Positions 16,646-61,085 of a stretch of DNA of 64,000 bases are shown here, one piece after another. Source of the DNA: Centroscyllium fabricii (lineage: Eukaryota); NCBI GenBank assembly GCA_051313645.2, contig JBNRSN020000002.1:399590001-399654000 (forward strand). The letters run 5' to 3'. A program made the translations under genes and the position numbers. Position 1 is the first letter of the stretch. Each line of letters begins with the position of its first letter. The notes beneath the pieces are model-generated. The model saw only the letters and a list, made by a program, of their open reading frames with translations, did not search any database and was not told the DNA's origin.

Positions 16646-17103
16646 CCGGTTCAGCACCATTAATCCGGCACGGGCGGGACCAGGCCCGTGCCAGGAAAGT
16701 GAAAATCCCGAACGATTGAAGCTTCGGCGAGCGCATGCGCGGACCATTCAAAATGGCCACCACGAAAGGCCGGTGGCCATTTTGAGTGGTCTGCGCATGC
16801 GCTTATCGTTTGGGGAGGCCCGGCATGCGATCGGCTCTGAGAGACTCGGAGGCCCAGCCCGTGATCGGCTTGGAGAGACTCCGGGAGACCCGGCCCGAGA
16901 TCGGCTCGGGGAGACTCGGCCCGCGGAGACCATTGTGAATGATCTGCGTATGCGCTCGCCGTTCGGTGACGCATGCACAGATCTTTTGCTGAAGCATCAA
17001 GCGCGGCGACCATTTTGCGCATGCATAGGGCAGTCGGGGCAATTTATGCTGGACGACTGAAGCTGCCGGCTTTCCGGTTAACGGATTACTGGTGCTCAAC
17101 CTG
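16646..17103. mobile_element. TA-flanked TIR element (Tc1/mariner/pogo-type MITE) inserted in pol
   Basis: TA|CCGGTTCAGCACCATTAATCCG ... CGGATTACTGGTGCTCAACCTG|TA. Confidence 0.85.
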
Positions 17104-22605: not shown

Positions 22606-24214
22606 CAGGTTGAGCACCGGCAATCCGGCACCCGATGATCTGGTAGCTTCAGTGGACTTGCACGATTGGAAACCGGCGCTCTTCAATTTGCGGAGCAGCC
22701 ACTTGGTGGCGCCACCGTTTCCCGGGAAGGGTGAGCGAGCGCCAAAGGCGTCGGGTGTTTGGATTTCTGTTTCTTTAGGTTTTGTAAGTGTTCTATCCCC
22801 GGGCTCCCTCCCGGGGAAACATAGAAATATAGAAGATAGGAGCAGGAGTAGGCCATTCGGCCACTCGAGCCTGCTCCGCCATTCAATGAGATCATGGCTG
22901 ATCATCCAAACTCAGTACCCTGACCCTGCCTTCTCCCCGTATCCCTTGATCCCTCTAGCCTTAAGAAATACATCCAGCTCCTTCTTGAATATATTCAATG
23001 AACTAGCCTCCACCGCCCTCTGTGGCAGAGAATTCTACAGGTTCACCACTCTCTGGGTGAAGAAATTCCTCCTCATCTCTGTCCTAAATGAGTTACCCCT
23101 TATCCTTAGACTATGACCCCTGGTTCTTGACTCTCCGATCATCGGGAACATTCTTCTTGCATCAAGTTTGTCCAGACCAGTTAGAATTTTATACGTTTCG
23201 ATGAGATCCCCTCTCAATCTTCTAAACTCCAGAGAGTACAAACCCATTCTACCCAGTCTCTCCTCATACGTCATTCCTGCCATCCCAGGTATCAGTCTGG
23301 TGAATCTTCTCTGCACTCCCTCCATGGCAAGAACGTCCTTCCTTAGATAAGTAGACCAAATTTGCACACAGTGCTCAAGGTGTGGTCTCACCAAGACCCT
23401 GTACAACTGCAGCAAGACCTCCCTGTTCCTGTACTCGAACCCTTTCGCTATGAAGGACAACATACCATTTTCCTTCTTAATCGCCTGCTGCACCTGCATG
23501 CTCACCTTCAGTGACTGGTGCACAAGGACACCCAGGTCTTGTTGTACTTCCCCTCCTCCCAATCTATTGCCATTTAGATAATAGTCGGCATTTCTGTTTT
23601 TGCCCCCAAAGTGGATAACCTTGCATTTATCCACAATATACTGCATCTGCCACGTCTCAGCCCACTCGCCCAACCTGTCCAAATCATCCTGGAGCTTCCT
23701 GGTATCCTCCTCGCAGCACACATGCCCTCCCAGCTTTGTGTCATCTGCAAACTTGGAGACATTACATTTCGTTCCCTTTTCTAAATCATTAATGTATATT
23801 GTGAATAGCTGGGGTCCCAGGACCGATCCCTGCGGTACCCCACTAGTCACTGCCTGCCACTCGGAAAAAGACCCATTTACTCTTACTCTCTGCTTTCTGT
23901 CCGCCAACCAATTCTCAATCCAAGTCAATACCTTGCCCCCAATTCCATGTGCCCTAACTTTACATGCTAATCTCTTGTGCGGAACCTTGTCGAACGCCTT
24001 CTGAAAGTCTAAGTACACCACATCTACTGGTTCTTCCTGATCAATTTTCCCAGTTACATCCTCAAAAAATTCCAGGGAGTGTTCTACCCACGCGCTCCGG
24101 GCCCTGGGGAAGTGCTCTACTGCGCGCTCCCCCCGAACCTTCAGTGGTTCGGAATTTTCAGTGGTCCGGCACCGGCCTGGTCCTGAGGGTGCCGGATTAA
24201 CGGTGCTGAACCTG
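22606..24214. mobile_element. TA-flanked TIR element hosting a CR1 insertion
   Basis: TA|CAGGTTGAGCACCGGCAATCCGGCACC ... GGTGCCGGATTAACGGTGCTGAACCTG|TA. Confidence 0.85.
22818..24072 (-). mobile_element. 5'-truncated CR1 (HER1-like) with a nearly intact RT
   Basis: YLDFQKAFDKVPH, GVPQGSVLGP, KFADD; one premature stop at 23035; tail matches the HE1-like SINE tail. Confidence 0.95.
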
Positions 24215-24947: not shown

Positions 24948-25335
24948 GGGCGGCACAGTGGTTAGCACTGTTGCCTCACAGCACTGGCGACCCGTGTTCA
25001 AATCCGGCCTCGGCTACTATCTGTGTGGAGTTTGCACATTCTCCCCGTGTCTGCGTGGGTTTCCTCTGGGTGCTCCGGTTTCCTCCCACAGTCCAAAGAT
25101 GTGCGGGTTAGGTTAATTGGCCATGATAAATTGACCCTTAGTGTTAGGGGGATTCAATATGTGGGGTTACGGGGACAGGGTGGGATATGTGTCGGTGCAG
25201 GCTCGATAGGGATATGGGGAGAGGGCAGGGGCGGGGTACTGGGATTCGATGATCAGCCATGATCTCATTGAATGGCGGAGCAGGCTCGAAGGGCCGAATG
25301 GCCTACTCCTGCTCCTATCTTCTGTGTTTCTGTGT
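24948..25335 (+). mobile_element. HE1-like V-SINE
   Basis: tRNA head GGGCGGCACAGTGGTTAGCAC, V-domain TGTGTGGAGTTTGCACATTCTCCCCGTGTCTGCGTGGGTTTCC, CR1-type tail. Confidence 0.85.
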
Positions 25336-26718
25336 AACCGAAAAGCCGGAAAATTCAGTCGTCCGGCATAAATCGCCCCGACTGCCCTGCGCATGCACAA
25401 AACGGCCATCGCAATCGAGGCTTCGGCGAATGATCCGCGCATGCGCCGTCGAACGGCGGCGCATGCGCAGATCATTCAGAATTTCGCGTGGTGCGGCTGC
25501 CATGGGAGACGGGGAGAGTCTGAGGGAAGAGCCACGGTCATCACTCAAGCACCAAGCGTTTTAAATCTTACCGAACTTACAATGCAAAGCGAAGTGACGG
25601 TGGCAAGAAACAGCTGCACCTGCAGAAGAGAATCACCTCCCCCCCCCCGCCTGGGGCCGCTCTGCACCCAACCCGTCAGCTCTTTCCCTGAACGGTGAGT
25701 GCATGCGCAGATCATTTAAAATTTTGCGGCGGCCATTTCCAATGTTCTGCACATGCGCGTGGCCATTTTGAATGGTGCATGCATGCGCACTGAACGACGT
25801 AATTCTTCCGGCTTTTTCACTCTACCAGCGCGGGCCTGGTCCCGCCTGTGCTTGATTAACAGTGTTCAACCTGTATTTTGTGTTTATTTTATGTATGTGT
25901 GTTATTTATCTCATGTTCCAAAAGGGTTACATTCCTGTCCTCCTTTATTTTAGAAAAAAAGACATGAGTATAAAGTGGTCAAATACAACATTTTGCTCCG
26001 GTCTATTTTCTTGCTACAATTACTGAAGTCGTGATTTCACCCTACCTGCTCCCGCCCCCCACCCCCCCTACCCCCCCGCCCCCGCCATTCTGTTTCTTAG
26101 TCATCAGTTCTGTTCTGAGTTTAGTTTCTCTATTTTCCTACTGCCAAGCACAAAAGAAAACTGCGATTATATAAGCACAAAAATGGAAGAGGGTTAAGGT
26201 AGAGGCCAACGTGTATTCAGCAGGAGGGATGAGAGAAGGGCAAAGAGCCCAGGACAGACCAGTGAGAAGCTCGAGAATACAACAGGAATATGGCTGGACA
26301 GTTAGGAAGGTGTAAGTGAATGGGGGGGTGGTTAGATAGAGAAAGCAATCGGGTCAGAATCCGATCTATGGCAGCATCACCCTTGCGAGCAGAACTGCTT
26401 TCATATTTGTGCATGAAAGATCTGGAGAAGCAAATTACAAGTCACAAGCTTGAAATTATATTGAGAGATAATACCATATGAACACTTAATACATTTGTCT
26501 GAAAGTTTTGAAGTCAATGGTAAAAAAAAGTCAGATGGTGTGTAAAACAGGCAGCCATCTACTACCGTGGAAGATTAATTTCACCGCCAATGACTGCTCA
26601 AACAGCAAAGAGTGGACTTTCCGATGAACCTGGTAAGTGTTCGTACACTAGTATCTCAGTGCAGCTTGAAGGCCAGTGTTCCATGGGACAATATGTGCGC
26701 TTAGCAAGGAACGATGAA

Positions 26719-29240: not shown

Positions 29241-29710
29241 CAGGTTGAGCACCGTTAATCTGGACACTGTTTGTCCGGCAACTTCAAATGTCCGGCACAA
29301 ATCTGTCCGACTGATGCACGCATGCGCAAAATGGCCACCGCACTTGGCTACGCATGCCCAGGCCTCTCCCCGACTGGTCTGCGTATACGCAAAATGGCCA
29401 CCATGCGTGGCTGCGCATGCGCATGCCCAGGCCTCTGCCCGACTGCCCTGCGCATGCGCAAAATGGTCGCCGCGCGTGGCTGCGCATGCTCGGGCCTCCC
29501 CAATTGGTCTGTGTATGCACAATATGGCCATCGCGCTTGGCGGCGCATGCCCGGGCTTCTCGGCGAGCGCATGCGCAGACCATTCAAAATTTTGCGGCGG
29601 CCATTTTGAATAGTCTGCGCATACGCTCAGTGAACTTCAATCATTCGGATTTTTCAAAAATTCGGCACAGTCCTGTTCCCGACCGTGCCGAATTAACGGT
29701 GCTCAACCTG
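29241..29710. mobile_element. TA-flanked TIR element with an internal tandem array
   Basis: TA|CAGGTTGAGCACCGTTAAT ... ATTAACGGTGCTCAACCTG (19-bp perfect TIR); right flank is CA. Confidence 0.9.
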
Positions 29711-33291: not shown

Positions 33292-36200
33292 TCAACAAGG
33301 AATAACTTTTCTGCAAAATGAAATCAATAAACCGCAGGACATACCTACATAGGATTTTGAATGGGATATGGTAACAAGTTTAATCATTATGGAGTGAGTG
33401 GAGGGGATTTTCCTCGGGCCGTGAGGGCGGGTTTCCGGTGGGGCGGGGCTTAAAATCGAGAAACCTGTGGGGCAGGGGGGGGGGGTGGGGTGCTGTGCCT
33501 GCGGTGCGTCGTCCGGTTCTTCATCCTCAGCTGGTAGTGGCGGGGGCTCCGGTGTGTGTGTGTGTATCGGCCAGTATCCGGTGGGTTGTGGGTGGTATAT
33601 AGGCCAGTGGTCGATAGGTAGTGGCTGGACGGGCTGAGGCTCGACCAGAGGCTCCGCTGTGGTGCTCCCGGCGGGCGCTAGGTCCCTGATGGAGATGGTG
33701 TCCTCGCGCCCGTCCGGGAACTGCACGTATGCATACTGTGGGTTGGCGTGCAGCAGCTGCACCTTCTCCACCAGGGGGTCGGTCTTATGGCCGCGGACAT
33801 GCTTCCTAAGTAAGACCGGCCCCGGCATCGTGAGCCATGGTGGAAGGGCTGTCCCCGATGTCGACTTCCTGGGGAAGGAAAAGAGCAATTCGTGAGGTGT
33901 GGCGTTGGTGGCTGTACACAGCAGAGAGCGGATCGAGTGCAGCGTGTCTGGGAGGACTGCCTGCCAACGGGACACTGGAAGGCCTCTGGACTTCAGGGCC
34001 AGGCTGACCACCTTCAAGATGATCCCGTTCTCCCTTTCTACCTGGCTGTTCCCCCGGGGGTTGTAACTGGTCGTTCTGCTTGAGGCAACCCCTTTCTGAA
34101 GCAGAAACTGACGCAGTTCGTCGCTCATGAACGATGACCCCCGGTCGCTATGGATGTAGCTGGGGAGACCGAAAATGGCGAACAGCGTGGTGAAGTGCTT
34201 GATCACCGTTGCGCTCATCATATCTGGGCAGGGGAAGGCGAAGGGGAAGCGGGAGAACTCGTCTATGACCGTGCGGAAGTACGAGTTGCGGTCGGTGGAG
34301 GGGAGGGGGCCTTTGAAGTCCACGCTTAGACGTTCAAAGGGGCGGGTGGCCTTAATGAGGTGTGCCGCGTCTGGCCTGTAAAATTGGGGTTTGCACTCGG
34401 CGCAAACAGGGCACTCTCGGGTCATAGCCTTGATCTCCGTGATGGAGTAGGGGAGGCTACGGGACTTAACGAAATGGGCAAGTCTGGTGATACCCGGGTG
34501 GCAGAGGCGATCGTGGAGTTCCTTCAGCCGGTCTAGCTGGGCACTGGCGCACGTTCCCCTGGACAGTGCGTCCGGGGGTTCATTGAGTTTGCCTGGTCGG
34601 TAAAGAATGTCGTACTCGTAAGTCGAGAGCTCGATCCGCCACCGCAGGATCTTATCATTCTTGATTTTACCCTTTTGTTTATTATTAAACATAAACGCGA
34701 CCGACCGTTGGTCGGTGAGCAGGGTAAAATGCTTACTGGCCAGGTAATGACGCCAGTAGCGCACAGCCTCCACGATGGCCTGGGCCTCCTTTTCCACTGC
34801 AGAGTGGCGAGTTTCTGGTCCCTGTAGGGTGCGGGAGAAAAACGCTACGGGCCTGCCTGCCTGATTCAGGGTGGTGGCAAGGGCAAAGTCCGAAGCGTCA
34901 CTCTCCACCTGGAAAGGGATGGACTCATCAAAGGCGTGCATGGTCACCTTGATAATATCTTCCTTGATCCGGGCGAACGCCGTGTGGGCTTCTACCGAGA
35001 GGGGGAAGACGGTAGCCTTGAGGAGCGGTCTGGCCTTATCCGCGAACTGGGGAACCCATTGCGCGTAATAAGAGAAAAATCCCAGACATCTCTTCAGGGC
35101 TTTGGGGTTGTGAGGAAGGGGCAGTTCCTGTAAGGGTTGCATACGCTGTGGGTCTGGGTCGAGGACCCCGTTTTCCACCATGTATCCGAGGATGGCGAGC
35201 CGATCTGTACTAAAGACGCACTTATCTTTATTGTACGTGAGATCGAGCCATTTCGCCGTGTGGAGAAATTTGGCCAGGTTGGCATCGTGGTCCTGCTGGT
35301 CAGGGCTGCAGATGGTCACGTTGTCCAGGTAGGGGAAAGTGGCCTGCAACCCGTTCTGGTCAACCATGCGGTCCATCTCCCTCTGGAATACCGACACTCC
35401 GTTGGTCACGCCGAAGGGGACCCGGAGGAAGTGGTAGAGCCGACCGTTCGCCTCGAAGGCGGTGTACGGGCGGTCGGCTTTCCGGATCGGGAGCTGGTGA
35501 TACGCCGACTTAAGGTCGATTGTGGAGAACACCTTGTACTGGGCGATCTGGTTAACCATATCCGAGATGCGGGGAAGGGGGTAGGCGTCGAGCCCGGTGT
35601 AGCGGTTAATGGTCTGGCTGTAGTCGATCACCATCCGCGGTTTCTCGCCAGCCTTAACCACTACGACCTGGGCCCGCCAGGGGCTGGTGCTGGCTTCAAT
35701 TATCCCCTCCTTCAGCATACGCCCGACCTCCGACCTGATAAATGTCCGATCCCCTGCACTGTAACGCCGACTCTTGGTAGTAATAGGTTTGCAGTTGGGG
35801 TCGAGGTTGGCGAACAGCGAGGGGGCGTCGACTTTCAGGGTAGAGAGGCTGCAAGTCAGGCTCCGCTTTAGGAAGGGATTGTCCTGGCTACTGACGGTGA
35901 GGGGGGCCAGGGTCCCGCCGAACTCCATTGTCACGCTCTTAAGGTGGCACTGGAAATCCAGTCCCAGTAAGACTGGGGCGCACAACTGTTTGAGTATGTA
36001 CAATTTAAAATTACGGTACACGCAGTCCCTAACTGTGAGCGTGACGGAGCAGTAGCCGGTGACGTCCGCTGTGTGGGACTGTGAAGCAAGGGAGACTTGG
36101 TAGCGCGTGGGCAGGATCTGCAGTCCGTAGCGCCGCGCTGTATCGGGGTGGATGAAGCTCTCTGTGCTTCCGGTGTCGAACAGACAGTTAGTGGCATGGC

Positions 36201-36672
36201 CGTTGACTTTAATCCCCATCATGGAATTTGATAGGGAGTGCGGCCTAGCCTGGTCGACCGTGGCTGAGGCCGAAGTGTGTGTGTTTGTGTGGGAGCCCTC
36301 CGCTGGCCGGGGCCGTGCCCAAGATGGCAGCGCCCGTGATTCGCACATGGTCGGCCGCTGTGGACAAAATGGCGGCGCCGGGGAGTTGCACATGGCTAGC
36401 TGCTGAAGACAAGATGGCGGCACCGGTGGGTCGCACATGGCTGGCCACTGCGGACAAGATGGCGGCACCCGTGTTCCGCACGCGGCGGGCCGCTGTGGAT
36501 GCGGTGGCGGTGCCCGTGGTTCGCACACAGCGGGCCACGGTGGCTGGGTTGGCGGTGCCCGTGATTCGCACGCAGCGGGCCACGCTGGGCGAGATGCCGG
36601 TGTAGGGGGGTCGCACATGGCCGGCCGTGGCCGAGTTTGGCGTGCCGTGAGCGCGGCCGGCCTCTGCCGCAT
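33292..36672 (-). CDS. Gypsy pol (PR-RT-RNase H-integrase), open frame; the last residues run into flanking DNA
   Basis: LFDTGS, IDLKSAYHQ, PFGVTN, YLDN, DASDFA, HPG..CPVC, SVDFKGP/HSDRG/QVERENG. Confidence 0.92.
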   Translation of the reverse strand: MRQRPAALTARQTRPRPAMCDPPTPASRPAWPAACESRAPPTQPPWPAVCEPRAPPPHPQRPAACGTRVPPSCPQWPAMCDPPVPPSCLQQLAMCNSPAPPFCPQRPTMCESRALPSWARPRPAEGSHTNTHTSASATVDQARPHSLSNSMMGIKVNGHATNCLFDTGSTESFIHPDTARRYGLQILPTRYQVSLASQSHTADVTGYCSVTLTVRDCVYRNFKLYILKQLCAPVLLGLDFQCHLKSVTMEFGGTLAPLTVSSQDNPFLKRSLTCSLSTLKVDAPSLFANLDPNCKPITTKSRRYSAGDRTFIRSEVGRMLKEGIIEASTSPWRAQVVVVKAGEKPRMVIDYSQTINRYTGLDAYPLPRISDMVNQIAQYKVFSTIDLKSAYHQLPIRKADRPYTAFEANGRLYHFLRVPFGVTNGVSVFQREMDRMVDQNGLQATFPYLDNVTICSPDQQDHDANLAKFLHTAKWLDLTYNKDKCVFSTDRLAILGYMVENGVLDPDPQRMQPLQELPLPHNPKALKRCLGFFSYYAQWVPQFADKARPLLKATVFPLSVEAHTAFARIKEDIIKVTMHAFDESIPFQVESDASDFALATTLNQAGRPVAFFSRTLQGPETRHSAVEKEAQAIVEAVRYWRHYLASKHFTLLTDQRSVAFMFNNKQKGKIKNDKILRWRIELSTYEYDILYRPGKLNEPPDALSRGTCASAQLDRLKELHDRLCHPGITRLAHFVKSRSLPYSITEIKAMTRECPVCAECKPQFYRPDAAHLIKATRPFERLSVDFKGPLPSTDRNSYFRTVIDEFSRFPFAFPCPDMMSATVIKHFTTLFAIFGLPSYIHSDRGSSFMSDELRQFLLQKGVASSRTTSYNPRGNSQVERENGIILKVVSLALKSRGLPVSRWQAVLPDTLHSIRSLLCTATNATPHELLFSFPRKSTSGTALPPWLTMPGPVLLRKHVRGHKTDPLVEKVQLLHANPQYAYVQFPDGREDTISIRDLAPAGSTTAEPLVEPQPVQPLPIDHWPIYHPQPTGYWPIHTHTPEPPPLPAEDEEPDDAPQAQHPTPPPCPTGFSILSPAPPETRPHGPRKIPSTHSIMIKLVTISHSKSYVGMSCGLLISFCRKVIPC

Positions 36673-36740
36673 CAGGGTGGGAGACGGGGGCGCTTGTACC
36701 CTACCCCCGGACCATCGCTGGGTCGCGCTGCAGCTGCAGC

Positions 36741-37556
36741 TTACCTGAGGCCAAGGGCCGGTGTTGGAGCTTTCACAGGCCGCGCTGTTGTACCTGGAGC
36801 TGGACGCCGGGGCCGATTTGCAGGCCCTGGCGTAGTGTCCCTTTTTCGAGCACTTCTCGCAGGTCGCGGTCCTCGCGGGGCATTTCGCTCTTGGGTGTAA
36901 TCCCTGGCCGCAGAATTAACATTTCTTCTCCGCCGGCGTCTTCGCAGCTGCCACTGCCGTTGTGGGGGTCTCGACCCGTTGCGGGGCCGCCCAGGAGTCG
37001 AAGGTAGCGTGTGGGTTTTGGCCGCTGTACGCCTGTAGTCTGCGGCGCGCGCCATCCACAGCGTTGGAGAGGGAGATCGCCTCTTCCAGCGTTAGTGTCT
37101 CTTTCTCCAGCAGCCGCTGGCGGGCCTCTGCGGACCTGATCCCCGTTACATAGGCGTCCCGGACGAGGACATTCGCCTCCTCTTGTGCCGTCCGTGGTTT
37201 GCAGTCACAGGCCGGACAAGGGCTTGGAGCGCCAACAGGTACTGTTCATTAGACTCACCCACTAGTTGTGGTCTGGTCGCTAGCACATGTCTGGCATAGA
37301 CTGAGTGGACCGGGCGCACGTAGCATACCTTCAGTTTCTCCACGGCTTCAGTGTACGTCTTAGCGTCGCGGATGAAGGAGTATACCCGGCTGGAGATCCT
37401 TGAAGTGAGAACATGCAGCTTGTTCCCGTCGGTTGTCGCCTTGGCGGCCTCCATGTAGGCCTCGACGAGACTGAACCAGTGTGCAAAGGTATTGGCGGCG
37501 GATGGGTCCTGTGGACTAATGTCCAGCTTTTCGGGTTTCACCGCGCCGCTCTCCAT
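36741..37556 (-). pseudogene. gag, frameshifted
   Basis: MESGAVKPEKLDISPQ..VYARHVLATR..GES, homologous to the gag at 62670; Zn-knuckle remnants near 36830-36930. Confidence 0.85.
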
Positions 37557-42625: not shown

Positions 42626-43000
42626 TGACGTATCGTCAATCAAACATGAAAGACGAGCAGTTACCCAAACTACAGGCTTTTATTAATTTACAATGGAGCT
42701 AGTCTCCTGTCGAGTTCAAGGCGAGAATGAGCGGGGGCAGGGCGGCCCTCATCTATAAGCTCCCACCTGAGGGGAGGAGTTAGAGGTGTGGCTGACCTGG
42801 CCTTGCACACAATGTACAGAGTTGAAGGTGAACACATCCATATATATACACACAATGTACAGAGGTGAAGGTGAACACATCCATATATATACACACAATG
42901 TACAGAGCTGAAGGTGAACACATCCATATATATACACACAATGTACAGAGGTGAAGGTGAACACATCCATATATATACACTGGTAATTACGGTTACCACA
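42626..43000 (-). repeat. Solo LTR related to 37580-37879
   Basis: Same termini (TGACGTATCGTCAAT ... CGGTTACCACA on +), TSD CACAC, four copies of an approximately 44-bp tandem unit. Confidence 0.92.
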
Positions 43001-43023
43001 CACACCATCCTGACTTGGAAGTA

Positions 43024-44398
43024 CAGGCTGTGCACCGTTAATCCGTTACCCGATAAGCCAGCAGCTTCAGTCTTCCGGAACAAATTGCCCCGACTGTCCT
43101 GCACATGTGCAAAATGGCTGCCGTGATCGCTGCTTCACCGAATGATCTGCGCATGCGACGCCAAACGGCGAGTGCATGCGCAGATCATTCAAAACGGCTG
43201 CCGGAAGAGAAGTGATGCCTGTGCTCCCAGAATGCTGCGGGTGGGTGGGTGAGGAAGATGGCGCTGAGCGGCCGGCGGTGCGGACACGGAGCGGCTTCCT
43301 TGTAAAAGCTGGGCTGAAGCCGGTGGGAGAATAATGTGAGTGTGAAATGTTTCCCGCGCCGACATTGTTGATGAAAAGGCCTGCTCCCTCTATCTGCGCG
43401 AGGAGTGAGAAGTTCCGCGGCTGCAGCTATCACATCCATAAACATTCCCCCACAAGCTTTCAAATGTATCTCCCCTCCCGGCTTCTCTAGTTTTGGAAAA
43501 AGGTCATCGACCTGAAAGATTAACTCTGCTCCTCTCTCCACTGATGCTGCCTGGCCTGCTGAGTTTCTCCAGCATTTGTCTGTTGTTATTTAACATTTCT
43601 TTAAGACTTGCAGCTCTCGAGTGTCTGTTGAACACCCGCTCGGCTTGGTCTGAAGGCGATGGCGGACTTGCTCCGAGAAGAGCACGGAAAGGTAAAGGCC
43701 ATCAATAAGAGGGCGGCGAGTTTTACGAATGAGACGGAGCCGCTGGACTGGCGGCCTGGGCTGGAATGGGCTCCTCGGGCGCGCCCTTGAGCCCGGCTTC
43801 TCTTTAAAGGGAATACCAACAGAAAACCCTGGAGAAACTCAGCGGGCCAGGCAGCATCGGTGGAGAGAGGAGCAGAGTTGACGTTTCAGGTCGATGACCT
43901 TTTTTCAAAACCTTTTCTCTTTAAAGGGATCGCGCCTCACCGCCTGGCTTCAAATGTCACGGATCCCCGCAAACCCGCCGCAAGCTCTTCACTGCCGTCC
44001 GGCTAACTGGGCGCAGCCCCTCCACCCCTTCCCCACCGGGGGCGGCGGCCAGTTTGCTGCTGTACTTTGTGCTGACTCTCTGTCCCGGGTCTGGACTTTG
44101 CACCGATTCCATGGGCTTCGGCCCCGCTCGGTTAGAAATCTCCGCTCAGAGTCGCGGGGAGAGAGAAAGGAACCGGGCATTTGATTAAAAAGTGGTGTGC
44201 CTCATTTTTAATTTAAAAAAGTACATGAGTTTCGAATTCTTCAAAACTTCGCGGCAGCCATTTCCAATGTTATGCGCATGCGCGCGGCCAGTTTTAATGA
44301 TGCGCGCATGCGCACTGGCCGGCTTCATTCTCCCGGTTTTTTCGGTATACCGGCGCAGGCCTAGTCCCGCCCGTGCCAAATTAATGGTGCACAACCTG
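43024..44398. mobile_element. Long TA-flanked TIR element with heterologous cargo
   Basis: TA|CAGGCTGTGCACCGTTAAT ... ATTAATGGTGCACAACCTG|TA; the host LINE 3' sequence resumes on either side. Confidence 0.88.
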
Positions 44399-46703
44399 TA
44401 TATCATTGTTCCTTCATCATCGCCGGGTCAAAATCCTGGAACTCTCTCCATCATAGCGCTGTGGGAGTACCTTCACCTCATGGACTGCCGCGGTTCAAGA
44501 AGACGGCTCACCACCATCTTCTCAAGGGCAATTGGGGATGGGCAATAAATTGCCAGCGACGTCCACAATCCATGAACGAATAAAAACATGAACCTTTCTG
44601 CAAGTAGATTTGGGCTCAGGTGCTGTCTGATCATTGGACTAACTCCTCATATATTTTGTTTCTCAGGCAGGAGCGATCAGATTCTTAATCAATGTAGATG
44701 TTGTAGGTCTGCAAATTATAATCAAAATTGCTTTTTTTGGGGCATCTATTACAAGTTAATTTGCTTCAAGATAAAAATGTAGACCATGATATTTACCAGG
44801 TAGGTGGGTTGGAGGGGAGGCCTGTGGGTGGGGGTTGGCCTTATGGTGGTGACCGGAGGCCTTGTAGGGGGGGTGGTCTCCGATCACGGAGGGTGGTTAT
44901 GGTCAGGGCCCTGGATCCGGGAGGTAGGTAGGTTTAAGTGCCGGGTTTCACGAATTGTGTGAAACTCGTCCCCAGGCAGTTAAATTTAAAATGATGGGGA
45001 AAATAGATGCTTCCAGCCTCGTTGCAGTGTTTACATTGAAGTAACGCCTGCTGGGAGAGGCTTGGTCGTCCTTCCTCCGTCCCGCCTCTGGGAAAACCGG
45101 AAGTGGGTGGACTGAAGGCGAGATCATGTCAGGAATCTCATTTTTAACATTTTAACTATCCCCACGCTCCAAACCCACCCGGTTTTTTAGGGGAAAATTC
45201 CGGCCTAAGTCATCATACATACTTACTCCAGCTCAACCCCATTGATATTCTCTAATTTTTTTAACTAATGCTGACATTTAAAAAATGGTGACAAGATAGA
45301 CCACAACCTAACTAACAAATATGTCCATAATTCAATTTTTTTCAACAGTGCGTCGACCATTGTCCTTTTCACCACTGTTATGTCCGAATAAACACTCAAT
45401 GAGTACAACAGTTAGTCCGAATAAACACTCAATGAGTACAACTAACTGTTTCTTTATGCAACAATACAAACTTCAGTTACACAGCCCACTACCTCCTCTT
45501 CAGCTGTTGGTGCTGCTAAAGTACCTACTGAATGGAAGGCAGCCAATCAGCAAACTAGGAATTTCCTCAGCTATTGAATAAATGTTCCAGCAGTCAGAGC
45601 GGTAGCGTTTAGTAGAAAGGCATTGTTCCAGTATGAGTGATGCTGTGTTAACTGCATTGAACCCACATGAGAGGAACAATCGTACAGCAAAGGAACAATG
45701 CGTCTCTGAAGTGATTTGTATCAATGGATTAAATGTCAGGTTGGAAAATGTGTCTTCATAGTAACTGCAGACCAAGGGAGCACAAGCTGCATCAAAAGAA
45801 TGATGTTACTTCAGCAAACATAATCAGTCATAAAATATTAGACGCTGCTGTAATGTTCCCCTTTTACTGATGTGGGCCCACTTAATGCTCCGTGAAGAAA
45901 TGGGATAGGCTAAGAACCATGCAACTTCTCAAAAAATTGGAACCAGTTTCTGGTTGTTTCAGCAAAGACCCTTCCCAAAATCTTGCTGAATGTATCATTA
46001 ACAAATCTCTCTCTTTTTCTTCTTTCCTTTCAGGTGTGAGGTGATGGGTGATATTGCATGGTGTGCTGGGGACAGGAACTACCACCAGCTGCAATTGTGA
46101 TGGGGGTGGTGGGGAATGTATCTCTGAGTGACTCCCATTGCATCACCTCCTTCAAACTATCATTCTTCTCCCACCCACAGGCTCCCATCATATCTTCAAC
46201 TCCTTCACTTTCCCAATTCTCATTCACATTCATACTACCATTTCACTTCTGTCACTAACCCATTTCTTCCTCTTTTAACGAACTGCTGAATCCTTGTTTC
46301 CTCCCTTTCCCTTGCTCCACTATCACCCACTTGACCCGTAGACCTCCATCCAATCTCCCCACGCCCATTTGTTCCCTGCAAGAGGCCAGATGTCCCCTCG
46401 CCCACAGCCAGTTACCTCCTACACCTCTTTCCTATCTGTTTGCCTCAAAGAGGCATGGTTATCTTTCAAAATTCTACTTTTTATAAAAAATAAGTGTAAA
46501 TTCCCGAATGTGGAACAAAACTATAGGAGTTCATTTTTGTCTCTCTGCCGTTCCATTTTTTGACGTGAACAGAGCAAGATGAAAATCACAAGACACAATT
46601 GCCTACTTACTGCTAGAGGCTTTCCTATTTTGATTATCAGGTGGACCTCAAATTAGGCAGACAACTCTTCCACCAAAAACTGAAAGGAACCTAATGAATG
46701 TAT

Positions 46704-46942: not shown

Positions 46943-47052
46943 GTGGTGACCCCGTCTTGGAACGTCTTCCGAGAAGAAAATAGCAGCTTAACAGGGTTTA
47001 AGCCAAGCAGTCTGTACAGCCTCAGGACAGTTTAATAACGCAACCTGCAACA

Positions 47053-50000
47053 ATGTCCACAACCAACAGAAACCAGCCTTCCCGTCAGCAAGGACGTGGC
47101 CAGAACCCTGGGCACCGACTAACTTTACCGGAGTTCTGGGAGCAACGCCCGGCAGCGTGGTTCATGTGCATCGAGACCAGCTGCCGCACCCATGGCATCC
47201 AGGGGGACGACCGCTATGACCTAGTCTTCACGGCTCTACCGCAGTCGACGATCGACCGGATGTGGTCAAAGCTACAGAGCGCGCCCGCAACAGGCAGGTA
47301 CGACTTTATTAAGGCCGCGCTACTCAAAAAATTCACCCCGACCCAGTTCGAGTGCGACTGCCAACTCCTCAACCTCCCCGAACTCGGTGACGCAGATCCA
47401 TCTGACCTTTGGGGCCAGATGCAGGCGCTGACCACCGACCCTGCCTCCCTGTTTCGCAACATTTTCCTCCTTAAGCTGCCCCCCTCCATCAGACCGGCCC
47501 TGGCGGCTCTCAGCAACCGGAGCAGGGACGAGCTAGCCGAGGAAGCCGACAGGCTCATGGCAGCCGAGCGCACCCGCTCCGCCACGTGCGACCTGACTGC
47601 CGTGGCGGTCGAGCCCGCCCACACGCACCCCAGGTCCACCCCGATGCCTGAACCCAGGCCCCCGCGCCCTCCCAAACAACCGCGTGCCGTGAGCACCGGT
47701 TGGTGTTACTACCACGCGCGGTTCGGCGCCAAAGTGCACCGCTGCGTCCTGCCCTGCACGTTCAAGCCACAGTCCAGCCCAGCCCCCACCATGTCCGTAG
47801 GCCACACCGGAGCCCTGCTCTACGTTATTGACAGAGGCACGGGTCTCCGGTTTCTCTGCGACACGGGCGCACAACACAGCATCGTGCCAGCCTCCCCCGC
47901 AGAAGCCAAACAAGGTACCCGGGGCCCGCCCCTCGCGGCGGCTAACGGCTCCGACATAAAAACATACGGGACCCGCAAGCTAACCATCCAGCTTGCCGGC
48001 CATACGTATGAGTGGGAGTTCGTCACAGCCAAGGTCACTTCACCCCTCCTTGGGGCAGATTTCCTGTGCGCACACGGCCTCCAGGTCGACATGACCCGGC
48101 GCCGTCTGGTTGACATCAAAAACATGTCGCCCATCCCATGCTCCGTGGGGCCGGCACTACTAGCCCATGCGGCGGCAAGATGCCGTGCCCGGAACTCCGA
48201 CGCGTACAGTGCGCTCCTTTCAGAGTTCCCTACACTGACCAACCCCACCTTCACCGCCCGAACGGCCAAACACGGGGTGGAACATTTTATTCCCACCACC
48301 GGCCCTCCCGTACACGCCCACGCCCGCAGGCTGGACCCGGCCAAGCTGGAGATTGCGCGCGCTGAGTTTGACACAATGGAGCAACTCGGCATAATCCGCC
48401 GCTCCAGCAGCCCCTGGGCCTCTCCCCTCCACATTGCCCCCAAGCCGGGCGGAGGTTGGCGCCCCTGCGGCGACTACCGCCGCCTCAATAACGCCACCAC
48501 CACAGATAGGTACCCCGTACCCCACATCCAGGATTTCTCTGCCAGGCTAGCGGGCTGCACGGTCTTTTCCAAGATCGACCTGGTACGTGGCTACCACCAG
48601 GTCCCGGTGCACCCGGCGGATGTCCCTAAGACAGCTGTGATAACCCCCTTTGGCCTGAGAATGCCCTTTGGGCTCAAAAACGCGGCCCAGGCCTTCCAGC
48701 GCCTAATGGACTCAGTCCTACGGGACTTGCAGTTCATCTTCGTCTACCTAGACGACATCCTCGTGGCCAGCACCTCCCCCCAGGAGCACCTCCTGCATCT
48801 CAGGACCCTGTTCCAGCGCCTGGCAGAACACGGCCTTATATTAAGCCCCTCAAAATGTAAATTCGGCCTGGACATTATAGACTTCCTGGGCCACTGCATT
48901 TCCAGAACCGGGGCCATACCCCTGCCCTCCAAAGTGCAGGCGGTCCAGGAGTTCCCCCGCCCGCACACCGTCAAGGGCCTGCAGGAGTTCCTCGGGATGG
49001 TTAATTTTTATAACCGCTTCATCCCAGGAGCAGCCGCCCTCATGGCTCCCCTATACCAGGCCACACGCGGGCAGTCCGGCAAAGCCGCTGTCGAGTGGAC
49101 GGCCGACGCCGCCACCGCGTTCACCAAAACTAAGACTGCCCTAGCTAACGCCACCCTCCTAGCCCACCCCAGGCTCAACGCCAGAGTGGCCCTCACCACT
49201 GACGCCTCCGACCATACCGTCGGGGCCGTTTTTGAACAGTGGGTGGACAACTCTTGGCAACCGCTGGCCTTTTTCAGCCGGCACCTACGGCCCCCGGAGG
49301 TTAAGTACAGTGCCTTCGACAGGGAGCTCCTTGCTCTCTACCTCGCTGTGCGCCATTTTCGCTTCCTCCTTGAGGGCCGTCATTTCACAGCCTTCGTGGA
49401 TCATAAGCCGCTGACTTTTGCGATGGCTAAGATCACCGAACCCTGGTCGGCCAGGCAGCAGCGCCAGCTCGCAGCGGTGTCGGAATTTATGACCGACATA
49501 CAGCATATCTCCGGCCGCGACAACGTGGTAGCCGACTGCCTGTCACGCCCCACCATTAACGCCGCCCAAATGGCGGTGGATTACGCCAAAGTGGCAGCAG
49601 ACCAGCTGGCGGACCCTGATCTTCGCGCCCCGGCAGAAAAGCTCCCCGGCTTACGTTTGGCCAGCATCCCCCACGGCCCTGCGGCCAACGTAGTGTGCTG
49701 CGACGTCTCACTGCAGCAGCCCAGGCCCGTCGTCCACCAGGCATGGAGGCGGCGCATCTTTGAGACCCTCCACGGCCTGTCCCACCCCGGCACCCGCGCC
49801 TCCATCAAGCTCATTTCGGCCCGTTTTGTGTGGCGCGGCCTTCGTAGGGACGTCCGCGCCTGGACCAACGCCTGCATCGCCTGCCAGCGGGCCAAAGTGC
49901 ATAAACACGTCAAGGCCCCTCTAGAAAACTTTACCGTACCAGCCAGGCGCTTCGACCATGTCCACGTCAATCTCGTCGGACCACTGCCGCCGTCCCGGGG

Positions 50001-50857
50001 CCACACCCATTTGATGACCATGGTGGATCGCAACACTCGCTGGCCAGAAGCAGTCCCCCTGGCCGCAACCAATACTACGGACTTAGCCAGGGCGTTCATT
50101 GCAACTTGGGTCGCCCGTTTCGGCGTGCCCACCGACATCATGTCAGACAGAGGTCCCCAGTTCACGTCCGCACTATGGGCTGCCATCGCCCGCAACCTCG
50201 GGGTGACCCTGTACAGAACCACCGCGTACCACCCGCAGGCGAACAGGCTGTGCGAAAGGTTCCACCATTCAATGAAAGCCTCCCTGCGGGCCAGCCTGGA
50301 AGACGCATCCTGGACAGACCGCCTACCGTGGGTATTGCTCGGCAAAAGAGGACTTGCACGCCTCAGCAGCGGAACTCGTCTACGGCCAGACATTGAGAGT
50401 GCCGGGCGAGTTTCTCCCCGAATCGAACGCCACCTGGTCGGCCGACCAGTTCCTCAAAGACTTTGCCAACCCGGCATGAGCTTTCGCCCCCTTACCGGTG
50501 ACCCGGCACGGGGAGCCGGTGGCACATGTGCCCGACGCCATCCAGCAAGCCAAGTTCATTTTCGTCTGCCACGACGCTCATCGCACACCTCTACGGCCAC
50601 CCTACGACGGCCCTTATAGAGTGCTTCGGGCGGGACCTAAAACTTTCGATTTACAGCTGGGCAACCGAACTGAAACTGTATCAATCGACCGGCTGAAACC
50701 GGCTCACATGATAGCGGGCGACATGGCGGTCCCCGCCCACCCACCTCAACGGGGACGCCCTCCCGCACCACCACCCGCCCACACTCCACCGCAGCACCAG
50801 GAGCAACGCAAGACCCGTGCCGGCCGCACCATACGGCCACCACGACGCCTCTTGTAG
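47053..50857 (+). pseudogene. Single-ORF gag-pol with lesions
   Basis: 1188-aa ORF: CYYH..C..C knuckle, CDTGA, YLDD, DAS, HPG..CIAC, DRG; frameshift near 50345; the GPY tail is in ORF 50498..50857. Confidence 0.92.
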
Positions 50858-56428: not shown

Positions 56429-59400
56429 TGTAGTAACCTGTAAGGTTAGGAGTAACAGTGTCCAGCAGGTGGTGCTATGGTAATGGACTCCCGAGTTCAC
56501 GATAGTGTTCAGTCTTGGTTTTATAAGGTTGGGTCTTTTTGGCAAGAAACCATTTTAGGTTTAAGCTGAGTTAGGCTTGCAGTTCAGAGCCAGGTTGTAA
56601 AGACTGATTAAACTTGTTAACCAGTTAACCTAACCTGTGTCTGTGACCCCTCAAGATACTACATATGGCGATGAGAATAAAGGGTCAGTTAAAATAGTGG
56701 TGGAGTATTCGGAAGAAGTGCTCGAGTCAGTTAGCAAGCCAGTCGGAAAAGCATTAGACTAGGCTGGAGTGACTGGACTTCAAGGATGGCAGGAACGGTA
56801 GGCTCCCTGGCACCTTTTGACAGCAAGTCGCAGTTTTGGGAGGAGTATTGTGAAATACTGAGCCATTTTTTCATGGCAAACCGTGTGGACAGTGTTGAAA
56901 AGAAAAGGGCCATTTTGCTGAGTTGTGTGGGAGCGCAAACCTATACACTGATGAGAAATCTGCTGAGCCCGGAGCGACCGGGGGATAAATCTCTGGACGA
57001 GTTGCTGAGTCTACTGAAGAAACATTTCAATCCGAAACCGAGTGAAATAGTACAGAGATGGAAATTCAATTCGAGGACGAGGAGGCCGGAAGAAAGCATT
57101 ATAGAGCTTCGGAAGCTCGCACAGGACTGTAATTTTGGAAATATGCTCAAAGTCATGTTAAGGGACAGACTGGTATGCGGAATTAATGACGACGGTATAC
57201 AGCGAAAGTTGTTGTCAGAATTAACATTTGAGATGGCGCTGAAAAGAGCACAAGCCATGGAGACGGCTAATAAGGACCTTAAGGATTTAAGCTGTATGAG
57301 CAAGGAGATATGGAGTAAACCAGTGGGAGGAACTGTGTACAAGATGGAAACGGGCGCGAAAAGTCAACCTGTTGGGGGTGGGGAATGCTACCGATGTGGC
57401 GGGACGAGCCATTATGCCAAGGACTGCAGGTTTGCAATGGAAAAGTGCTACAATTGTGGAAAAATAGGGCACTTGAAGAAAGTCTGCAAAAGGGCAGTGA
57501 GTGAGAGAAGCAGTGCTAAAGGGACAAAGCATGCTAAAGGGGGGAGGGAGAAGCACACAAAGCGGGCAAACCACATACAAGAGGAAGAAGAGTCTAGTAA
57601 GGAGGTTTTCACTATCTCCAGTATAGACACTTCAAGGCCCAATGTACCCCCTCTCACTCAGTATTTGATAGTGAACGGAGGTCAAGTAAAGTTTGCGATT
57701 GATACCAGATGTAGTGTAACCATAATGTCCCAGAATGAATACGCCAAGCTATGGGGGAAAGCAAAAGTACCCGAGCTAGGTACATGGCCCATTAGTCTAA
57801 AAACCTACACAGGACAGAAGGTGGACATTTTGGGGGCGGCCGAAGTACAAGTGAAACACAAAGGAGCAACCAAAGAGCTCACGGTGGTAGTAGTAGCAGG
57901 GTCAGCGCCAAACCTGTTAGGGCGAGTGTGGGTCAGGGAGTTGAGGGTGGACTGGCAAGCAATGAATAAAATGGAGGACAGTACAGAGGCACTGCAAGAA
58001 GTGCTGATGAAGCAGGAGCTAGTGTTCGAGGACGAACTGGGCACCTTAAGGGGAGCCACAGCCAAGATTCATATAGCCAGTGATGCCACGCCTCGGTTCT
58101 TTAAACCAAGGTCGGTACCTTTCGCCATGAAACCCAAGGTGGAGGCGGAACTAGATCGCCTGCTAAACTAGATCGCCTGCTAAAGGGCAATGTAATAGAA
58201 CCAGTGAAATTTTCAGACTGGGCGGCACCGATAGACGGTAACATCAGGGTGTGTGGTGACTATAAGTTAACAGTAAACAGAGTATCATCACGGGAACAGT
58301 ACCCCATTCCTAGAATGGAGGACATGTTCACATCGCTAGCTGGGGGAGAAAGATTCAGCAAACTGGACACGAGTCATGCATCTCAGCAGATAGTGCTAGA
58401 TGAAGAAGCCAAAAAGTTTGTCACGGTGAACACGCACAAGGGGCTGTTCCCGTATACCCGGTTACCATTTGGTGTCAGTTCTAGACCCCCAATATTCCAA
58501 CGGACTATGGAGGGCATTCTGCAGGGCATTCCAAAAGTGGCCGTGTACTTCTTAGATGATATTCTGCTAACAGGAAGTGACGATCAGGATCATGTAAAAA
58601 CACTGGACAAAGTGCTACAGCGGCTGGAAGAGGCGGGGCTACGCCTGAAACGGAGTAAGTGTAATTTCATGGAGAAGGAAGTTACATTCCTGGGACACCG
58701 GGTGGACGCCACAGGCCTTCATCCAGTACCAGGGAAAGTGCGGGCAGTGTGGGATGCACCGGCACCCACCTCAGTGACGGAACTGAAAGCCTATTAGGAC
58801 TCCTGAACTATTATAACCGGTTTCTTCCCAACTTATCGATGCTACTGGCACCCCTGCACAAACTGCTGAGGAAGGAGGAGCCATGGGGTTGGGGGCCAGA
58901 GCAAGCAAAAGCGTTTCAGCAGTCAAAGGAGCTACTTCAGTCCAGCAGGGTGTTAGTGCATTACGACGAGAAGAAGGAACTCATAATGTACTGCGACGCA
59001 TCACCCTATGGAATGGGGGCAGTGTTGGCCCATGGCATGCCAGATGGAGCGGAAAGGCCCATCGGGTTTGTGTCACGCACTCTCACTGCTGCTGAAAAGA
59101 ACTATTCACAGCTGGAGAAAGAGGGGTTAGTCATTATATTTGGGGTGAAGAAATTCCATAAGTACATTTATGGGAGGAAGTTTGTAATCCGTACTGACTA
59201 CAAGCCACTTATTAGCTTACTGAATGAGATGAAAGCGGTGCCTCAAATGGCTTCACAGAGAATAATGAGATGGGCTGTACTACTAAGAGCCTACGGATAT
59301 GTGATCACGTACAGAGCCGGCAAGGAAAACGGGAACGCTGATGTTCTCAGCCGCCTGCCCTTCCCAGAATATCCTCGCAGTAATTCCCCGGAGGAGCACG

Positions 59401-61085
59401 TTCTGATGCTGAATCAGGATATCAGTCCCCTGATGACTTCAGAGCAAATCCGGGGCTGGACAGCCAAGGACCCTGTTCTGTCAAGGGTCCGTGAGTATGT
59501 GTTGAAAGGCTGGCCAGGTCACAGCGATGGACCGGAATTCACGCCTTGCAAACAGAGACAGAGACAGCACGAGCTCAGCGTCCAAGATGGATGTGTACTA
59601 TGGGGAGCACACATCATAGTTCCAGAGCAGGGACGCTCTGCTTTGATGGAACATTTGCATCAATCGCACCCAGGGATGACTAGAATGAAAGGACTGCCGA
59701 GGACTGCCTGTGGTGGCCTATGTTGGATGCTGAAATCGAGTCAAAAATAAAGTCATGCACTATATGTCAGGAACAGACGAAGGCACCTGCCGGCGCACCA
59801 CTCCATCCCTGGGAGTGGCCCAGCATACCTTGGAGGAAAATTCACATGGACTATGTGGGACCATTTATGGGAAAATTGTTTCTGATACTTGTAGACGCTC
59901 ACTCAAAGTGGATCGATGTTTATCCAGTGAGCTCTGCGATGACTGATGCCACACTGGATTGTCTCAGGAACAGCTTCAGCACGCACGGCATTCCAGAAAT
60001 GATGGTATCCGATAATGCACAGTGTTTTATGAGTGAAGCGAGCAAAGAATTCATGGCAAGGAATGGAATCACACATGTTACCTCGGCTCCATATCACCCA
60101 TCCTCAAATGGGTTGGCCGAGCGAGCCGTGCCGACTTTCAAGGAACTCATGAGGAAGAGCTCAGGTGACACCCTGGAGACCAAGCTCCATAGAGCCTAGT
60201 TTAGTTATCGTATAACACCCCAATCGACCACTGGGCTTTCGCCAGCGGAGATATTGATGGGAAGGAAGTTGCGCTGCACGTTAGAACTAATACACCCAGA
60301 TCTCAGAAGCAAGGCTGAGACAAAACAAACAAACCAAAAAGCGTATCATGACAAACATGCTAAAGCTCGCCATTTCGCCATAAAGGACTCGGTGTACACC
60401 AGGAACTTTGGCTATGGACCTAAATGGATACCAGGACTTATCCAGGACATTACAGGACCTGTGTCATACTCCGCATTACTAGGGGATGGTTGAGTGGTGC
60501 GTCAGCATGTGGATCAGCTTTTCAGCCGGCAGTAGAGGAGGCTGTTCCAGGGCCCAACACGGTCTGCAAGATGCCAGGGGACACTGGTACTGCCCGGCTA
60601 CAGTAGGACCAAGTACAAGCAACATCAGAGACTGCTCCAGTCTCAAGCGCGAGTGAATCGGAGAAGCCACCACAAGGGGAATTAAGATGTTCACAATGGT
60701 CTCGCAAGGCTACAGAAAGACTTATAGAAACCTGTTAAATTAGTTAAGTGTTAACCTGCTTAGCGCAGGCTGGTTCATTAAAATGTAGTACTTAGTACTG
60801 GCTATTGGTGAAGAATTACATATTGAAATCTTAAGGGGGGAGGAGTGTAGTAACCTGTAAGGTTAGGAGTAACAGTGTCCAGCAGGTGGTGCTGTGGCAA
60901 TGGACTCCCGAGTTCATGATAGTGTTCAGTCTTGGTTTTATAATATTGGGTCTTTTTGGCAAGAAGGCATTTTAGGTTTAAGCTGAGTTACGCTCGCAGT
61001 TCAGAGCCAGGTTGTAAAGACTGATTAAACCTGTTAACCAGTTAATCTGTGTCCGTTTCTCTCCATGACCCCTCTAGATACTACA
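56429..61085 (+). mobile_element. Full-length Gypsy (Mag-like) LTR retrotransposon, decayed
   Basis: LTRs 56429-56663 and 60846-61085, TSD TGAAT, PBS TGGCGATGAG (tRNA-Ser-like), PPT AAGGGGGAGGAG. Confidence 0.95.
56786..60720 (+). pseudogene. gag-pol, frameshifted
   Basis: Two CCHC knuckles (CYRCGGTSHYAKDC, CYNCGKIGHLKKVC), FLDD, DASPYG, HMDYVGP/SDN/GLAER. Confidence 0.92.

Follow-up and report, generated by a model that had tools for sequence, protein, structure and literature searches.

Animal Pack-TIRs, transposons that hold host DNA between terminal inverted repeats (TIRs), were surveyed by Tan et al. (2021, PMC8277862), where the sections drawn on here list 370 of them in 100 genomes, four being multicopy, give an example with three copies, record none in elephant shark, and describe the animal elements as few in number, in most cases present once and in most cases formed without transposition. 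As set out in those sections, the pipeline required a unique best match at 90% identity or more, and because of that requirement high-copy families could be missed or masked as repeats. The names 'URI1', 'NPRL2' and 'CENPW' are absent from the 12 supplementary files of the survey. For the pogo superfamily, the relevant part of Gao et al. (2020, PMC7386202) gives a TA target duplication and TIRs of at most 40 bp. Our literature search returned nothing on Pack elements in sharks, or on URI1 and a transposon in sharks; subscription journals lay outside its scope, and an entry in a repeat library (Repbase, Dfam) is possible.

Here we describe an element of this kind in a 64,000-nucleotide stretch of Centroscyllium fabricii DNA (contig JBNRSN020000002.1), referred to as the window. 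With a probability of about 90%, it belongs to a non-autonomous, TA-inserting TIR family that has spread a start of the host gene URI1, about 840 bp long, to 800 sites or more; a pogo/Tigger-type transposase has likely moved the family in trans, and its copies are likely decaying methylated passengers.

Results

Ends and arms of the element

The left end reads TA followed by CAGG..TTAAT at 43022-43042 and its inverse closes at 44398, directly before the right TA, with 17 of the 19 TIR bases matching (Table 1). Arms of about 190 bp on the left and 160 bp on the right enclose an interior of 1026 bp. Within the left arm lie GCGCATGCGC and AAAATGGC-type repeats. The arms are 70-81% identical to those of five other window elements, in line with an earlier, sequence-only reading of this DNA, which had matched the TIRs to those of copies of roughly 460 bp. 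TA stands on both sides of 70 of the 88 TIR-bounded elements from the window and the fetched loci, a few places being counted twice. A TA duplication with short TIRs, here of 19 bp, is the combination of the IS630-Tc1-mariner group, which includes pogo; likewise, as in other Pack-TIRs, the two ends of one TIR element enclose between 100 and 5000 bp. Membership in the Pack-MULEs was rejected, given that those have an 8-11-bp duplication and long TIRs against the 2-bp TA and 19-bp TIR found here. The sequence-only reading had called this a Pack-type TIR element with a TA target, and TIRs, TA duplications and a TIR-free parent were all found. The motifs that it placed are likewise all present: CCGGAAG at 43201, AAGATGGCG at 43255, GTGAGT at 43336, the ATG at 43659, AG before GTAAAG at 43692, and CCTCAC at 43935-43940.

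The CpG observed/expected ratio of the element, 0.8-1.0, is unexceptional in the window, where many repeats reach the same. Just to its left, at 42806-42977, a 43-bp unit is repeated in tandem about four times.

Table 1. Parts of the element and its flanking duplications, in window coordinates.
Feature	Position	Strand	Remarks
Target-site duplication, left: TA	43022..43023	.	TA both sides in 70/88 family elements
Left transposon arm	43024..43212	+	Opens with 19-bp TIR; common to elements with other cargo
URI1 cargo 1: transcript-start region and 5' UTR, includes AAGATGGCG	43213..43446	+	Consensus 90% versus C667:72323883-72323661
Insertion 1: 151-bp piece of common dispersed repeat, 6-bp duplication AACATT	43447..43597	+	
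URI1 cargo 2: 5' UTR end, exon-1 coding part, donor 43692, first 120 bp of intron 1	43598..43812	+	
Insertion 2: 117-bp piece of insertion-1 repeat, 15-bp duplication	43813..43929	-	
URI1 cargo 3: intron 1	43930..44238	+	Colinear with C667:72323375-72323046
Right transposon arm	44239..44398	+	Closes with 19-bp TIR
Target-site duplication, right: TA	44399..44400	.	Read from sequence

The interior aligns with the 5' end of URI1

By alignment, the interior of 43024-44398 is one contiguous piece of about 840 bp from the 5' end of URI1, split by two later repeat insertions. The parent is the URI1 gene on the minus strand of contig C667, where an arm-free stretch from 72323883 to 72323046 is colinear with all three cargo blocks; BLAST identities to the parent, gaps included, are 90, 88 and 78%. 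At non-CpG positions the family consensus lies 3.9% from the parent in the UTR, 1.7% in the coding part and 7.3% in the intron, and 86 of 87 coding nucleotides are identical (parent exon 1 coding part at C667:72323599-72323513). No match to the arms was found within several kb of the URI1 5' end on C667, so that the parent is TIR-free. Given that the cargo keeps the boundary between exon 1 and intron 1, with some 440 bp of the intron, the capture took place at the DNA level and the cargo is no retrocopy.

The cargo peptide matches URI1 of Pristiophorus japonicus at 87% over 48% of the query, one match among 26 candidates, and the matched protein has prefoldin domains. The reading MADLLREEHGK, from the ATG at 43659, is URI1 exon 1 minus 54 nt, an in-frame deletion in the window copy; the longer family reading, which lacks this loss, reproduces the first 29 residues of the Pristiophorus japonicus protein. 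Pfam searches with 17 stop-free frames of the interior gave no family, and a Myb/SANT-like identity was dropped once URI1 had matched. All 17 aligned long copies keep the ATG, and 14 keep the donor at 43692. The GTGAGT at 43336 results from a C>T change found in the window copy alone (1/17), the family majority and the parent having GCGAGT, and the minus-strand GTGAGG at 43935-43940 is again found in the window copy alone among the 17, where the majority and the parent read GCGGCG. The donor at 43692 is the sole genuine donor among the three.

The sequence-only reading had seen several first-exon fragments in this element. With the insertions taken out, the blocks join up exactly along one URI1 stretch, to which they are colinear; the three therefore come from a single capture. 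In the leftmost fragment the letters are as described and AAGATGGCG lies in the region of the URI1 transcript start and 5' UTR, while its donor falls away and CCGGAAG turns out to be left-arm sequence, outside the cargo. In the middle one the start codon and donor stand, and the peptide is a shortened exon 1. The rightmost, taken for a minus-strand block with a donor, is plain URI1 intron 1 on the same strand as the other two. Searching the genome with the three fragments, as that reading had suggested, yielded many TIR-bounded copies, and there is a TIR-free parent at a gene 5' end; what it had named as speaking against it, an interior of repeats only or without a TIR-free parent, is not the case, the URI1 parent lying on C667.

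An inverted twin of the URI1 promoter and exon 1 lies about 10 kb upstream of them and matches at 94% over 1244 bp, a GC-rich tandem repeat included (C667:72323085-72324294, locus L057, and 72332695-72333930, L058). The genic copy was the template, because the cargo continues beyond the twin for about 40 bp and there agrees with the genic copy. GC-rich minisatellites start within tens of bases of capture boundaries, at the URI1 parent from C667:72323894 upward and at the NPRL2/CYB561D2 parent, described below, on both sides.

Unspliced exon-1 contigs from three related organisms cover the parent UTR and coding part in one piece and end at the parent donor (L057 positions 5514, 5514 and 5512); that they are RNA is a guess. 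A run of organism F, likely DNA, has five records on the parent at even depth, with no arm junction among the matches listed. Arm-cargo and insertion-1 junctions are present in run X1 of organism A, and runs X2, X3 and X16 have neither among the matches listed, an absence of little weight.

Two later insertions inside the cargo

Insertions 1 and 2 make up a quarter of the interior and are inverted to each other, 90% complementary over 100 bp. The sequence-only reading, which had rightly seen about 1 kb of interior between the arms, overlooked this inverted repeat of 151 and 117 bp. Both insertions are absent from the URI1 parent; insertion 1 is also absent from older subfamilies, and insertion 2 from L018, L061 and the short subfamilies. 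Free copies of the inserted repeat occur elsewhere, a CTGANGA..GAAAC core being present in 7 of 19 matches and decayed in the window element; Rfam gave two sub-threshold chance matches on the element and no hammerhead. The repeat may well be a Penelope-like end with a decayed hammerhead core. Penelope-like elements have been linked with a hammerhead in their terminal repeat (PMC6155905, in the section consulted). Insertion 2 (43812-43911) shares diagnostic bases with insertion 1 (43490-43590) in some copies and carries the free-repeat variant in others; there are hints that conversion may have occurred between the inverted arms.

Copy number, forms and age of the URI1 family

With each of the three interior fragments we searched the animal's own assembly, 7.2 Gb, obtaining 1322, 1749 and 2238 first-look candidates, of which 40 for each fragment were scored. 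The fetched loci share the arms and, at 86-94%, the interior. In 29 of 34 loci the two ends could be located, and the flanks are distinct in nearly all; thus, as in multicopy Pack-TIRs, several loci carry their own target duplications. A 21-nt pattern across the arm-cargo junction, absent from the parent, has 807 exact matches genome-wide, and its reversed control has none. The URI1 cargo has spread to at least 800 sites. Given that the exact junction is found in 23 of 34 fetched junction-bearing copies, a biased set, there would therefore be about 1,200 junction copies, and the 800-830-bp form, which lacks the junction, comes on top. Unselected DNA contained the cargo 0 times in 400 kb and once in 827 kb, too few for a density (220-49,000).

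The long form measures 1.3-1.46 kb and shorter forms about 740, 800-830, 930 and 1230 bp. Neither insertion is present in L061 or the 800-830-bp form; both of these retain a piece of intron lost in the long form, and their TIR is mostly CAGGTTGA.., while CAGGTTGT.. is the TIR of the forms with insertion 1 and then of those with both insertions. Non-CpG divergence from the consensus has a median of 2.8% (17 long copies), and age estimates are biased young because the consensus copies were the top matches. Compared across copies, the cargo is a fixed family sequence, captured and then amplified. Sampling of host DNA by each copy for itself is not supported.

Transposase and class

None of the 45 loci fetched from 150 DDE_1 matches is a transposase-coding element with these TIRs. 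The dominant DDE_1-coding family has another TIR, with CAGG and a ATCCGGCAC-like box as the common part. In its TA duplication and the shortness of its TIRs the family agrees with the pogo group, and the pogo/Tigger label is likely, if unproven. Two loci, L074 and L081, were considered as the autonomous partner and rejected, the Pack elements there being nested in an unrelated coding element. They sit (L074:2050-2350, L081:1331-1464) at nearly the same place and in the same orientation, immediately before the DDE domain in two copies of the dominant coding family, with their right parts lost; the shared site may reflect selection by the DDE search.

The window also contains two uninterrupted frames of 1200 codons, at 33292-36915 (minus strand) and 47002-50619 (plus strand), with protease, RT, RNase H and integrase in Ty3/gypsy order, and a third, broken one at 56735-59750.

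Sister elements with other gene starts

Elements with the same arms among the fetched loci have several interior types. Type D carries the CENPW promoter and most of exon 1; its arm-free parent at C1:428958824-428958977 is 85% identical over 154 bp and lies 10.7 kb before a PF15510 exon. An element at L179:8803-9435 carries the entire bidirectional promoter of NPRL2 and CYB561D2, together with the first exon and the donor of each gene, and its parent, C1156:5726003-5726377, is also arm-free (86% over 386 bp). That parent was reached via PF03188, and the two genes were named by PDB and protein matches; a homolog search and the Atlas with a 42-aa CYB561D2-like peptide returned nothing. Types B, C, E and G are also gene-start-like, and B, C and E are high-copy, with 404, 1274 and 2526 candidates, among the best 40 of which no parents of these cargos were found. 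Parents were thus located for three of the three cargos sought through a recognisable coding exon, and because parents were located in this way, 5' matches are favoured. As far as tested, the sequences support the idea that the starts of various host genes travel in sister elements, and the earlier view of a TA-targeting family sampling host gene starts is upheld by TIR-free parents for URI1, CENPW and NPRL2/CYB561D2.

The L179 element comes from an unselected sample of 400 kb, taken at fixed round coordinates, which contained six left ends and five complete elements; three of the five hold tandem repeats only and two are gene-start-like. Six ends per 400 kb scale to about 108,000 elements genome-wide (40,000-235,000).

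Several sister families have features of their own. Family C (L081:2377-3076, L110-L124; 1274 candidates) is 700 bp long with copies 98% identical; the CENPW promoter piece comes first, then another exon-like fragment closing in a GTAAGG donor, and by its arrangement the family is likely a product of sequential capture. Family E (L044:666-1265, L148-L167; 2526 candidates) has a pyrimidine tract and then a short exon-like piece with a GTAAGG donor, a start that we take to resemble a 5'-TOP first exon. Family G (L143:1722-2244, L173:4767-5271, C712:111159406) has a box before the ATG, presumably RFX-like, and is likely abundant because it was met three times by chance. Within the window, 25335-25876 is a family member with a type B interior (404 candidates), its left end damaged by a later insertion. 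The short window copies at 16646-17103, 29241-29710 and 22606-24214 do not represent a single element in empty form: different tandem repeats fill two of them, and another is apparently split by about 1.3 kb of other repeats.

Decay of the copies

CpG transitions in the URI1 family are 4.2 times as frequent as non-CpG C/G transitions, equally in arms and cargo, and 3.3 times in a transposase-coding control family. CpG decay per copy is 6-12%, and 0 of 17 copies are protected; the URI1 parent keeps its CpGs. Of the 17 long copies, 7 have the whole exon-1 coding part, and its frame is open in 5. The CpG decay and broken exon 1 would fit methylated passengers. In run X1, from a related organism, family-derived contigs are deeper than the URI1 exon contig; the run is guessed to be RNA and may be DNA, and the deep contigs could reflect transcription.

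Discussion

From the shape of the junctions we infer how the capture may have come about. A break inside an element would have been repaired by template switch, copying from the open URI1 promoter region. Microhomology at the cargo junctions is 0-1 nt. In one copy, the oldest-looking L061, a 14-nt piece of URI1 exon 1 occurs a second time, in front of the cargo at the left junction, which would fit a template switch, possibly in two steps. The captured product would then have been moved in trans by a pogo/Tigger-type transposase and amplified in waves, from no insertion to insertion 1 to insertion 2, with internal deletions, the TIR probably shifting across the waves from CAGGTTGAGCAC.. to CAGGTTGTGCAC... 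The bias of the cargo to gene starts would most likely, at about even odds, reflect accessible CpG-island DNA that serves as repair template; it may instead come from selection among cargos or from ascertainment in this analysis. The capture mechanism and the 5' bias are directly testable because the parent, the subfamily series and the junctions are all preserved.

Could the interior nonetheless be a mosaic of three first exons captured separately from different genes, as first supposed? Three promoter- or donor-like motifs are present, donor-like hexamers number 4 against 1.36 in shuffles (a count reached in 2 of 100), and sequential capture does seem to occur in the wider family, where family C has the CENPW piece and then another fragment. 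Yet two of the three donors occur in 1 of 17 copies and the blocks, colinear with one URI1 stretch, rejoin exactly once the insertions are removed, which makes a mosaic very improbable. We give as little credit to retroposition or segmental duplication, in place of DNA transposition, as the source of the copies: three of them (L037-L039) do belong to a tandem segmental repeat and share their flanks, and L027 and L031 have flanks in common, but most copies have distinct flanks ending exactly where TA meets the TIR, and the cargo keeps intron 1 and has no poly(A). Least credible of all is the reverse direction, in which URI1 would have taken its promoter and first exon from the transposon by exaptation. 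The sequence is indeed far commoner inside transposons than at the gene; however, the parent is without arms, its exon encodes the URI1 N-terminus in another shark, the sequence is single-copy-like in three other organisms, with no arm junctions among the matches listed, and the parent CpGs are intact whereas the copies are losing theirs. Judged from these comparisons, the direction of transfer is from host URI1 to transposon.

Are some copies, finally, mobile cassettes of promoter, first exon and donor that start new or chimeric transcripts, a capacity that drove or followed the spread? The cargo contains a transcript-start region, an ATG and a real donor (14/17), the arms are rich in motifs that we take to be NRF1- and YY1-like, and family-derived contigs are deep in the one run of a related organism that is guessed to be RNA. 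Moreover, at least 30% of animal Pack-TIRs occur in chimeric transcripts, according to the pertinent section of Tan et al. (2021, PMC8277862). On the other hand, cargo CpG decay equals that of the arms and the control family with no copy protected, exon 1 is repeatedly deleted or frame-broken, and no spliced junction from a Pack donor was found in the contigs of related organisms, which as contigs cannot show starts. We therefore regard such cassettes as unlikely and prefer decaying passengers. Equally doubtful, in our view, is the larger conjecture that a shark TIR superfamily of about 100,000 elements preferentially harvests housekeeping promoter-first-exon-donor units (URI1, CENPW, the whole NPRL2/CYB561D2 bidirectional promoter and more), with tens of thousands scattered and some new starts spliced into neighbouring genes. 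If true, it would amount to promoter shuffling by cut-and-paste transposons on a scale unreported in vertebrates.

In the preferred reading, a captured gene start founded a family of more than 1,000 copies in successive waves, and sister families did likewise, which would be plant-like Pack behaviour in a vertebrate. For annotation, Pack copies yield hundreds of false URI1 exon-1 matches, and masking with a de novo repeat library would hide the genuine promoter and first exon of URI1.

Among described Pack-TIRs, the frog Pack-hAT-N8_XT, with CAPSL 5' UTR, and the fly Ssk-FB4 (both in PMC8277862, as presented in the sections used here) are like the URI1 element in having host DNA between TIR arms, a distant TIR-free parent, distinct duplications and a 5' gene part. 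Compared with the multicopy Pack-TIRs in those sections, the URI1 cargo is present at least 807 times, spread over several subfamilies, more than 200-fold above the three-copy example. Plant Pack-MULEs, in the account of PMC5861414 drawn on here, share with the shark family a preference for GC-rich gene sequence, gene 5' ends and open chromatin, whereas MULEs make 8-11-bp duplications and the URI1 element a TA duplication, with short TIRs. The cargo of Pack-MULEs is said to be low copy in many cases; in the shark family, each cargo founds a high-copy family. Non-autonomous pogo/Tigger derivatives, as far as PMC7386202 is cited here, are alike in TA duplication and short TIR, the URI1-element TIR beginning with CAG. 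Unlike them, the URI1 element has an interior of host DNA with no transposase remnant. Bat Helitrons, which have reportedly captured host promoters and first exons, resemble the URI1 family as vertebrate DNA elements that spread host gene fragments at high copy; they are rolling-circle elements with no TIRs and no TA duplication, whereas the URI1 element has both.
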